Made by a program: the position numbers and the translations under genes. A stretch of 24,254 nucleotides of DNA from an uncultured archaeon (GTDB lineage: Archaea > Asgardarchaeota > Lokiarchaeia > Sigyniarchaeales > SOKP01): NCBI GenBank assembly GCA_964447495.1, contig CAYUTF010000027.1, positions 1 to 24,254 on the forward strand. The letters run 5' to 3'. The notes beneath the pieces are model-generated. The model was not told the DNA's origin, did no database searches, and saw nothing but the letters and a program-made list of their open reading frames with translations. This document shows positions 3,249 to 13,859 of this stretch, in pieces (the first letter of the stretch is position 1; each line of letters starts with the position of its first letter).

Positions 3249-3438
3249 ACTAGACCTATTTTTATGATTTATCCTAAATAAATATCTTGTTTTAATAACA
3301 CTAATATTTATTCATAAATATATCTATTTTTTAATATTAACTATACACCATTCTTTACTAAATCTATTGAAAATCATGATAAATTTATTTATTTTTAAGC
3401 CTTTTAATTAATAAATTAAAATATAATAATTCTATTAC

Positions 3439-3523
3439 GCGGGAATTGCCAAGTTTGGTCAAAGGCGATGGACTTAGAATCCATTCTCGTAGGAGTTCGG
3501 GAGTTCAAATCTCCCTTCCCGCA
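3439..3523 (+). tRNA. trnL: tRNA-Leu(TAG), intronless
   Basis: Acceptor GCGGGAA/TTCCCGC, anticodon arm ATGGA-CT TAG AA-TCCAT (TAG 3475-3477), long variable arm, T arm GGGAG TTCAAAT CTCCC, discriminator A; CCA not encoded. Confidence 0.97.
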
Positions 3524-3664
3524 TTAGACTCATATTAGATATGAATTGATAATTATTTGGAATGGTCCTCCCCTTCTAATACTATTTTAATAAAATTTAA
3601 AATCGACGATTAATTAAAAATTATATTTAGAACGGTTGATCGCCAAGTCTAAATATGAAAAATC

Positions 3665-3768
3665 GCTCCCGTAGTGTAGTCCGGCCAATCTTTCTTATTA
3701 GCTAAAGAAAGGGCTTAGCATGCTAGGCTTTCACCCTGGTGACCCGGGTTCGAATCCCGGCGGGAGCA
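3665..3768 (+). tRNA. trnE: tRNA-Glu(TTC) with a 29-nt D-loop intron (3689-3717, position 21/22)
   Basis: Acceptor GCTCCCG/CGGGAGC; anticodon arm CTAGG-CT TTC AC-CCTGG (TTC 3730-3732); T arm CCGGG TTCGAAT CCCGG. Splice motif: helix GGCC/GGCT, bulges AA|T and TA|G, inner stem CTTTCTT/AAGAAAG. Confidence 0.95.
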
Positions 3769-3833
3769 TTTTAATAATAAATTATCTTATTCTCATGAAA
3801 TAAGTTTATATCTTTAAGTAAAAAGAAGGATAG

Positions 3834-3984
3834 CGCCCCGGGCATGGAACTCGTCCCAACTGGTCATTAGCAGAAGGAATCTCGAACATGCGACCGCCCG
3901 GTTAACTTCCGGAGGTAAAATAAACCTTAGCCGGGTGCTTTAGGCACACCGAAACGGGGCTCTACCTAACTGAGCTACCGAGGC
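3834..3984 (-). tRNA. trnN: tRNA-Asn(GTT) with three introns: 3961-3940 (22 nt, 22/23), 3928-3907 (22 nt, 33/34), 3880-3848 (33 nt, 59/60)
   Basis: Spliced product is a 74-nt cloverleaf: GCCTCGG TA GCTC AGTTAGGTA GAGC A CCCGG CTGTTAA CCGGG CGGTC GCATG TTCGAGC CATGC CCGGGGC G. Each intron is bounded by a 4-bp helix with two 3-nt bulges. Confidence 0.93.
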
Positions 3985-4162
3985 GCGTGTATATATGGAG
4001 ACTTTTAAGGTTACATCTCGTATAATAAATAGTATTTATTTTCCTTTTTAGGTTTTTCGATAGATAGAATTATACTTCTTATTCAAAAATGAAATACATT
4101 CTATATTCTTTTTATTAAAGTTAGAAATATAAAGAAACAATAAAGTTTAGATTATATAAGAG

Positions 4163-4687
4163 TTAAAATTGAGCTGCGTAATATATTAACCATTTCGCCA
4201 TTGCCTGGAAAGATTCATTTACATTAATGTTTTCTTTAGAAGAACATAAAACACACTGGTTACATTTAGCTTTTATTGCATAATCATGGGCAATTTCTAA
4301 ATCTACCTCATGATTAGGAAGATCCCATTTCATACCCATTAAAATTATAGGAATAAATCCTGCCTTTTGACGTATTATTTTTAACCACTCAGGAATCTCC
4401 CGGAATGTATCATAATCGGTGATATCAAAACATATAAATGCTCCACTAGCACCTTTGCAATAATCGGGGAGTAATTCTCTAAAACGCTTTTCTCCCGCAA
4501 AATCCCATAGCTGCATTTTTACAGACTCTCCCGTATCTAATGTTTCCGATTTAGTGTGAAATCCTGCTCCTATTGTCATTTTATAACCTTCCTGAAATTT
4601 TCCCGTACAGTATCTTGTTATCATCGCAGTCTTTCCAACTCCCCCTGCACCAGCAACAATAACTTTAAAGATCCATGAACTCATCAT
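4163..4687 (-). CDS. Rab-like small GTPase (Ras superfamily)
   Basis: G1 GAGGVGKT, switch I YKMTIGAGF, G3 KMQLWDFAGE, YCKGA, ICFDIT, G4 GMKWD, G5 CSSK; no C-terminal prenylation cysteines. Confidence 0.93.
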   Translation of the reverse strand: MMSSWIFKVIVAGAGGVGKTAMITRYCTGKFQEGYKMTIGAGFHTKSETLDTGESVKMQLWDFAGEKRFRELLPDYCKGASGAFICFDITDYDTFREIPEWLKIIRQKAGFIPIILMGMKWDLPNHEVDLEIAHDYAIKAKCNQCVLCSSKENINVNESFQAMAKWLIYYAAQF

Positions 4688-13756: not shown

Positions 13757-13859
13757 TGCAGAGAGTGGGATTTGAACCCACGTAGGGCCTATGCCAATGG
13801 ATCTTGAGTCCATCACCGTTGGTCGTGTATTCACATTGACCTGGCTTGGTTATCTCTGC
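13757..13859 (-). tRNA. trnL: tRNA-Leu(CAA) with a 17-nt D-loop intron (13835-13819, position 21/22)
   Basis: Acceptor GCAGAGA/TCTCTGC; anticodon arm ATGGA-CT CAA GA-TCCAT (CAA 13806-13804); long variable arm; T arm GTGGG TTCAAAT CCCAC. Splice motif: helix GGTC/GACC, bulges AA|T and AA|C, inner stem GTG/CAC. Confidence 0.95.

Follow-up and report, generated by a model that had tools for sequence, protein, structure and literature searches.

A tRNA-Asn(GUU) gene with three bulge-helix-bulge introns in a Loki-type Asgard archaeon

Results

Structure of the locus

We analyzed a stretch of 24,254 nt (hereafter the window) that forms the start of contig C27 in a draft genome assembly of 3.81 Mb (223 contigs, 98.4% complete, 3.75% contamination, 31% G+C). 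The window has four tRNA genes, of which three, those for Glu(TTC), Leu(CAA) and Asn(GTT), are interrupted. Among its protein products are a thermosome subunit, a Ras-family GTPase, RPA, TFB, a PAC2 protein and FtsZ. The Ras-family small GTPase gene lies directly upstream of the tRNA-Asn gene, and such a neighbor is typical Asgard gene content. The closest relatives of the EndA gene of this genome were found in MAGs labeled Promethearchaeota or Promethearchaeia archaeon (76-91% identity). An earlier note, made from the letters of the window alone, had assigned the DNA to Asgard archaea, which agrees with both the EndA relatives and the gene content of the window; the genome is of the Loki-type class (Promethearchaeia).

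The tRNA-Asn gene consists of four exons and three introns (Table 1). Its encoded sequence lacks the CCA end. When the introns were cut out by script in the reading direction of the gene (3961..3940, 3928..3907 and 3880..3848), 74 nt remained, which ARAGORN recognized as tRNA-Asn(gtt), whereas the unspliced 151 nt gave no ARAGORN call. In the spliced product ARAGORN reported an acceptor stem of 7 bp (one of them G-U), a D stem of 4 bp, an anticodon stem of 5 bp and a T stem of 5 bp. All of the conserved positions are in place (U8, A14, G18 G19, U33, G53, T54 T55 C56, A58 and C61), the anticodon GUU sits in a 7-nt loop with U33, and the discriminator is G73, which we take to be an identity element for Asn. 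The earlier note had deduced a 151-nt gene giving a 74-nt cloverleaf after loss of 22+22+33 nt, with one intron each in the D (22/23), anticodon (33/34) and T (59/60) arms; our reconstruction reproduced the lengths exactly and all three sites proved correct.

Two other kinds of disrupted gene were considered. A split or permuted tRNA gene is ruled out, as the four exons are collinear, in normal order and on one strand within 151 nt. The 60 nt upstream of the gene contain no copy of the 7-nt acceptor strand, and none of the introns of the gene adjoins the acceptor stem. Group I and group II introns are ruled out as well, the inserts being only 22, 22 and 33 nt long and no Rfam intron family matching positions 3300..4300 up to E = 10. 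Beyond the end of the gene, the run of five T might possibly serve as an archaeal oligo-T terminator, judging from its sequence.

Table 1. Coordinates of the tRNA-Asn gene, its parts and neighbors, and of other interrupted tRNA genes of the genome. Positions without a contig name refer to the window.
Feature	Position	Strand	Remarks
Pre-tRNA-Asn(GTT) gene, 151 nt	3834..3984	minus	base 1 = 3984, discriminator G73 = 3834
Exon 1, 23 nt	3962..3984	minus	acceptor 5' strand, U8 A9, D stem 5' strand, D loop, G22
Intron 1, 22 nt, 22/23 (D arm)	3940..3961	minus	relaxed BHB; core common to the D-arm introns of relatives
Exon 2, 11 nt	3929..3939	minus	A23-C25, A26, anticodon stem 5' strand, C32 U33
Intron 2, 22 nt, 33/34 (anticodon loop, not canonical 37/38)	3907..3928	minus	HBh' motif
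Exon 3, 26 nt	3881..3906	minus	anticodon GTT, A37 A38, anticodon stem 3' strand, variable loop, T stem 5' strand, T54-G59
Intron 3, 33 nt, 59/60 (T loop)	3848..3880	minus	full hBHBh'
Exon 4, 14 nt	3834..3847	minus	C60, T stem 3' strand, acceptor 3' strand, G73
Five-T run, 10 nt beyond the gene end	3820..3824	minus	possible terminator, from sequence
Ras-family small GTPase	4163..4687	minus	Pfam Ras 4.5e-39; directly upstream of the tRNA-Asn gene
tRNA-Glu(TTC)	3665..3768	plus	29-nt D-arm intron 3689..3717, H 4/4, inner helix 7 bp
tRNA-Leu(CAA)	13757..13859	minus	D-arm insert of 17-19 nt, boundaries ambiguous; Rfam 47.6 bits, ARAGORN silent
Thr(CGT), three introns	C15:26018-26163	minus	solver
Ser(GGA), three introns	C19:28295-28451	plus	solver
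Ser(TGA), two introns	C12:22223-22355		solver
Arg(CCT), two introns	C140:2328-2451		solver
Met(CAT), two introns	C27:28683-28819		solver
Thr(GGT), two introns	C29:21993-22125		solver

Splice motifs and chance controls

The archaeal splice signal consists of two 3-nt bulges separated by a 4-bp helix (bulge-helix-bulge, BHB). All three introns of the tRNA-Asn gene show such a motif with a complete central helix (H). For intron 1, H is AGGT/GCCT (4/4 pairs) with bulges AG|A and AA|A, an inner helix of 2 bp and an outer helix of 1 bp. For intron 2, H is CCGG/CCGG (4/4) with bulges CT|A and AA|G, an inner helix AGGT/ACCT of 4 bp and an outer helix of 0 bp. For intron 3, H is TTCG/CGAG (4/4) with bulges AG|A and TT|C, flanked by an inner helix TTCC/GGGA of 4 bp and by the 5-bp T stem as outer helix. 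These strings, including the full hBHBh form of intron 3, had been listed in the earlier note, and our recomputation returned them unchanged.

We compared the motifs with three kinds of control. First, the letters of each intron were permuted 20000 times with the exons held constant, and a shuffle was counted when H was 4/4 and the flanking pairs were at least as many as observed; this happened in 200/20000 shuffles for intron 1, in 5/20000 for intron 2 and in 8/20000 for intron 3. Second, when the length of each intron was slid along the gene, H was 4/4 at 2/121, 2/121 and 5/110 other positions for introns 1, 2 and 3, respectively. Third, at random places of the genome, H was 4/4 in approximately 2.4% of cases, and H 4/4 together with at least 3 flanking pairs in approximately 0.4%. 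Thus, at all three junctions the combination of central helix and flanking helix greatly exceeds what the shuffle, slide and random-place controls gave. In its minimum-free-energy fold, the precursor forms the acceptor stem, the motif of intron 3 in full and, for intron 2, the central helix, bulge and inner helix. On the other hand, the energy of this fold was not distinct from that of shuffled sequences (z = -1.16; 27 of 200 shuffles folded as well), so that the energy alone is no evidence.

We also gave 391 nt of raw sequence to a blind solver, which starts from a 7-bp acceptor pairing with U8 after it, collects all BHB candidates, searches their subsets and passes the products through a cloverleaf check and ARAGORN. 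From 579 BHB candidates only 2 solutions emerged, both of which contained introns 2 and 3. One of them comprised exactly the introns at 22/23, 33/34 and 59/60, and the other differed in the D arm only. This search is not independent of the BHB motif because the motif is part of it. The result bears on the reading that the cloverleaf is a chance outcome of choosing which 77 nt to delete. Three free deletions do allow many possible products, but the scarcity of solutions, the three controls above and the coincidence of the exon junctions with those of intron-free relatives (see below) all speak against it, and we count this reading, whose probability appears negligible, as already refuted.

The same gene in related genomes

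BLAST of the locus against 40 relatives (24 of the same genus and 16 of other families) gave matches in 14 of the 24 same-genus genomes and in none of the 16 genomes of other families. Intron boundaries were resolved at 16 loci by intron-tolerant alignment followed by a BHB-guided choice within 5 nt; L019, a duplicate of L014, was left out. All 16 same-genus loci spliced to a tRNA-Asn(gtt) of 73 or 74 nt (ARAGORN). Their intron numbers varied considerably: one locus had none (G003), one had the T-loop intron only (G002), eight had three and six had four. The 33/34 intron was present in 14 of the 16 loci and the 59/60 site was occupied in 11. As a side observation, one genome (G008) has two tRNA-Asn loci on two contigs (L016 and L018) with the same upstream sequence, one with three introns and the other with four, the extra one at 59/60; the pair could reflect mixed strains within the bin, or else a recent event of gain or loss.

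A second search used the intron-free G003 gene as query against 151 genomes of the order, 103 of which matched. The match-range patterns of this search are indirect readings rather than resolved gene models. Read in this way, an unbroken 1-73 match to the compact gene was observed in 6 genomes, and a fragment starting at 27 or 28, the same as that of this window and produced where the 3' end of the intron mimics the exon, in 37 genomes. Another form of break at 33|34 was found in 4 genomes, a 5' fragment ending at 37-39, which would fit a canonical intron, in 8, any fragment ending at 58 or 59 in 60, and any fragment ending at 63 in 20. The best 30 loci of the 151-genome search comprised 6 compact genes, 16 with the 59/60 intron only, 6 with a 63/64 intron only, one with an odd 60-nt insert and one truncated copy; all 29 resolvable loci among these 30 spliced to tRNA-Asn(gtt). 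Taking both searches together, 45 of the 45 resolved loci spliced to tRNA-Asn.

Across the loci, the exons are nearly invariant, and the introns diverge in both sequence and length. At sites that lack an intron the exons abut exactly as predicted, and exon 1 is uninterrupted in the compact relatives. Thus, the intron-free orthologues fix the junctions without recourse to the splice motif. Two of the compact Asn genes scored 66.8 and 64.9 bits against the Rfam tRNA model.

The motifs also covary. At 33/34, the first four pairs of the inner helix occur in 7 different sequences among the 14 loci and are always paired, and the central helix is CCGG/CCGG in 11 loci, TCGG/CCGA in one (a compensatory change on both sides) and TCGG/CCGG in two (wobble). 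At 59/60, the intron side of the central helix is CGAG, CGAA, CGGA or CGAC against the fixed exon sequence TTCG among the 11 loci, with wobble changes keeping the pairing in 10 of the 11, and the inner helix has nine different starts. The 33/34 anticodon-loop intron is conserved over several genera, while intron number ranges from 0 to 4 inside one genus.

The D-arm intron and its possible origin

Intron 1 has the weakest of the three motifs, and its shuffle control, at 200 of 20000, is the least favorable. Four excision positions yield an identical product, and it is only at 22/23 that a BHB forms. This raised the question of whether the gene, although real and spliced, has its first intron cut elsewhere, either at one of the equivalent positions from 23/24 to 25/26 or as in the solver's second solution, which takes out 21 nt after base 17. 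Such a reading gains from the weakness of the motif, which is missing from the minimum-free-energy fold (the D stem pairs there with an AGC of the intron itself), and from the D-arm intron of relatives, which was placed at 17/18 or 18/19. However, all 4 central pairs are formed only at 22/23, as compared with 1, 3 and 2 of 4 at the three equivalent shifts, and the 21-nt alternative would leave a D loop without the GG dinucleotide. Moreover, two relatives (G012 and G019) share the same 22-nt D-arm intron at the same place as here, with an inner helix of 6 bp. A different cut of intron 1 therefore seems unlikely, and excision at 22/23 is the reading that we prefer.

In a MAFFT alignment, the D-arm intron of this gene (22 nt, at 22/23) has one core in common with those of relatives at 18/19 (30-39 nt), the 22/23 form being 8 columns shorter and excised 4 nt further 3' than the 18/19 form. 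In one relative (G011, L008:1501-1564), a direct repeat of 10 nt of exon sequence borders the D-arm insert on both sides, so that excision at any of nine positions leaves the same product. The 18/19-type introns open with a degenerate copy of their downstream exon. When they were locally aligned with their own mature tRNA, from 11 to 93 of 2000 shuffles were as good for 7 of the 9 distinct introns; introns at other positions showed no such likeness in the same test. These few and related sequences tentatively suggest that the D-arm intron may have been born from the tRNA itself by local duplication and may then have moved or slid, an origin that we regard as possible but clearly not the probable one. 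In the genome studied here, a blastn-short search with the three introns returned only the introns themselves and matches of 10-16 nt at E >= 0.1, with no copies in other genes.

Detection by tRNA finders and uniqueness of the gene

On the whole window, both ARAGORN and Rfam left the Asn locus unreported, and each reported two other tRNA genes. It was also missed by a permissive Rfam scan of positions 3300..4300 to E = 10 and by a tRNA-model search over the whole genome to E = 10. The suggestion of the earlier note that this is an under-annotated case is thereby borne out, as ARAGORN and the Rfam tRNA model stay silent even at E<=10. Because of these misses, automatic annotation would list the genome as lacking tRNA-Asn.

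We then asked for any other tRNA-Asn gene in the assembly, a check that the earlier note had proposed. The gtt anticodon was absent from the 43 calls made by ARAGORN without introns and from the 56 made with introns over the whole assembly. None of the Rfam tRNA matches left unnamed by ARAGORN was Asn; they read as Ala(CGC), Leu(GAG), Leu(CAA), Thr(TGT), Ile(GAT), Lys and Lys(CTT), and an odd sequence on C77 was non-Asn as well. Intron-tolerant alignment of the mature sequence to both strands of the 3.8 Mb scored 127 at the Asn locus and at most 61 elsewhere, the latter at a Lys(CTT) gene. No other tRNA-Asn gene was thus found in the draft assembly by ARAGORN, Rfam or intron-tolerant alignment, and the locus is the sole tRNA-Asn gene within the limits of that assembly.

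Silence of the standard tools might also be expected from a decaying or silent tRNA pseudogene, with the working tRNA-Asn located in unassembled DNA, and the assembly is indeed a draft of 223 contigs. However, the exons are free of defects in every stem and at every conserved position, and are nearly identical to those of compact Asn genes scoring 65-67 bits (Rfam). The interrupted form appears to be maintained, the fragment signature of this window recurring in 37 of the 151 genomes of the order, and the splice motifs covary. Furthermore, no other Asn candidate in the genome exceeds 61, as against 127 here. We consider a pseudogene very unlikely, and a working, interrupted gene remains our reading of the locus.

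Other tRNA genes of the genome

A census was performed by running the solver on all tRNA-model matches and on 198 pre-filtered acceptor/T-arm pairs genome-wide. By intron number, the native tRNA genes comprised approximately 12 with none, approximately 20 with one, approximately 4 with two and 3 with three introns; these counts are lower bounds and are not motif-independent, because the solver reports the solution with the fewest introns and relies on the BHB. For 7 of the 32 anchor regions the solver gave no solution. Left out of the counts are the compact arrays of C80 and C26 as well as six doubtful solutions (C109, C19:36852-37061, C8:49041-49336, C77, C130 and C1:172831-172958). Genes for Tyr, most of those for Met and those for several other isoacceptors were not found by the census solver. 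T-loop introns of 29-34 nt at positions 57-61 occur in 11 different tRNA genes of the genome, usually with the T stem as outer helix. At the tRNA-Glu(TTC) gene of the window, ARAGORN calls a wrong piece of 76 nt (3692-3767), and the Rfam score of 27.7 bits lies below threshold.

Two further searches gave little. The regions upstream of 42 solved tRNA genes were uniformly AT-rich, with TATA-like words at no preferred distance, and a GC-island scan for hidden RNA genes yielded 1511 islands and was too noisy. As a separate observation, the genome bin contains dense arrays of compact, intron-free tRNA genes, approximately 22 on C80 (a 15-kb contig) and 5 on C26:33639-34079. They include anticodons unusual for archaea, such as Ile-TAT and Leu-AAG, and the only Phe(GAA) gene found sits in the C26 array. 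These arrays may belong to a mobile element or a virus, or may be contamination.

Splicing enzymes

Two EndA paralogues are present in the genome, on contigs C196 and C3, both with the Pfam N- and C-terminal domains. Paralogue 1 (201 aa) gave its best PDB alignments with 3p1z_B (8e-36) and 3ajv_B (2e-34), of which 3p1z is, we assume, the EndA of A. pernix. It keeps the active-site Tyr, His and Lys and, within a 'KPR' loop that also aligns, has a Lys matching residue 44 of 3p1z_B. In the EndA of Aeropyrum pernix, broad substrate specificity comes from a loop whose conserved lysine is K44, and an (alpha-beta)2 EndA with this loop has been described for Asgard archaea (PMC5829648). Paralogue 2 (205 aa) has a Ser at the position of the catalytic His in PDB 1a79 and, as expected, would fit a structural beta subunit. 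RtcB is present as well (561 bits). With two EndA paralogues and RtcB, the proposed pathway, in which EndA would cut and RtcB would join, is encoded in this genome.

Discussion

Proposed processing of the tRNA-Asn precursor

Taken together, the features that were observed, namely the gene structure, the conserved and covarying splice motifs and the enzymes encoded in the genome, lead us to put at about 0.9 the probability that 3984..3834 is the only recognizable tRNA-Asn(GUU) gene of this Loki-type Asgard archaeon and that its three BHB introns are removed by EndA and the exons joined by RtcB. According to this reading, the locus is probably transcribed as a precursor of approximately 151 nt, in which each insert would fold with the neighboring exon into a bulge-helix-bulge. 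A two-subunit EndA of (alpha-beta)2 form would then cut once per 3-nt bulge, the lysine loop of its catalytic subunit permitting relaxed motifs. RtcB would join the four exons into the 74-nt tRNA, to which CCA would be added afterwards. Acceptance of relaxed motifs by this EndA, and its action on the Asn precursor, are predicted from its sequence; likewise, we infer that the locus is transcribed and its RNA cleaved at exactly these bonds, in what order the introns are spliced, and that ligation and aminoacylation take place.

Comparison with known systems

The earlier note had supposed that this would be a rare case in Asgard archaea. This part did not hold, since multi-intron Asgard tRNA genes have been published and the solver predicts at least two other three-intron genes in this genome. 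In four Asgard genomes, including that of a Lokiarchaeote, tRNA genes were predicted and multiple-intron genes mapped, and the incomplete tRNA sets pointed to undetected disrupted genes (Kaneta et al. 2018, PMC5829648). Three complete Asgard genomes were reported to have introns in 92-95% of their tRNA genes and several introns in more than half of them (Valentin-Alvarado et al. 2024, PMC11291895). More recently, in an analysis of 90 Asgard genomes, 30% of inserts escaped tRNAscan-SE, most of these being in the D arm; a gene could contain as many as five inserts, the number per gene was 0.91 outside the focal families, BHBs were enriched, and how introns arrive was explicitly left open (Goswami et al. 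2026, bioRxiv 10.64898/2026.10.13.758758). In the main text of that preprint, as available to us, the strings 'Lokiarchae', 'Promethearchae' and 'Asn' do not occur.

The gene described here resembles the published Asgard multi-intron tRNA genes in its short introns (the preprint gives a median of 22-23 nt), in their sites in the D arm, anticodon loop and T arm, and in their BHB boundaries. Published Asgard D-arm introns are also missed by standard annotators, and an (alpha-beta)2 EndA with the L1 loop has been reported for Asgard archaea. On the other hand, the focal lineages of the published work were Atabeyarchaeia and Jordiarchaeia/Freyarchaeia, whereas the genome studied here is Loki-type. 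With approximately one intron per native gene, which is a lower bound, this genome lies near the preprint's value of 0.91 for non-focal Asgard families. The tRNA-Asn gene is a well-controlled Loki-type example of the published intron-rich Asgard tRNA genes, and knowledge of the mechanism is unchanged by it.

Outside Asgard archaea, up to three BHB introns per gene, non-canonical sites and relaxed motifs are textbook knowledge for Crenarchaeota (PMC4090602). Thermoproteales resemble the present case in that a gene can have as many as three introns, that hBH/HBh' motifs of relaxed form occur, that EndA is alpha2-beta2 and that joining is of the RtcB type (PMC4090602), but they belong to another phylum and another temperature range. 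Transposition between genes is the explanation offered for the Thermoproteales introns (introduction of bioRxiv 10.64898/2026.10.13.758758); unlike what that account describes, the three introns have no paralogous copies in this genome. The split and permuted tRNA genes of Nanoarchaeum, Caldivirga and Thermofilum depend on the same endonuclease and on BHB-type junctions (PMC4090602), whereas the exons here are contiguous and nothing is trans-spliced or permuted.

Eukaryotic nuclear tRNA introns, located at 37/38, are also spliced by proteins, namely homologues of EndA/Sen (PMC4090602), and Cyanidioschyzon merolae resembles the present case in having several introns per gene at odd positions (PMC4090602, PMC3728597). 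In contrast with the eukaryotic pattern, none of the three Asn introns lies at 37/38, although the 5' fragments that end at 37-39 in 8 related genomes touch that position. The relevance to the eukaryotic use of mainly 37/38 introns, which the earlier note suggested, is speculative.

Implications

In this nearly complete Asgard genome, an essential tRNA, tRNA-Asn, is invisible to both ARAGORN and the Rfam covariance model, and several other isoacceptors are concealed likewise. If the proposed origin of the D-arm intron is true, local tandem duplication of exon sequence could give rise to BHB introns in the Asn gene family, and small deletions could make them slide. With 0 to 4 introns in one orthologous gene, the species of a single genus provide a natural series for studying intron arrival.
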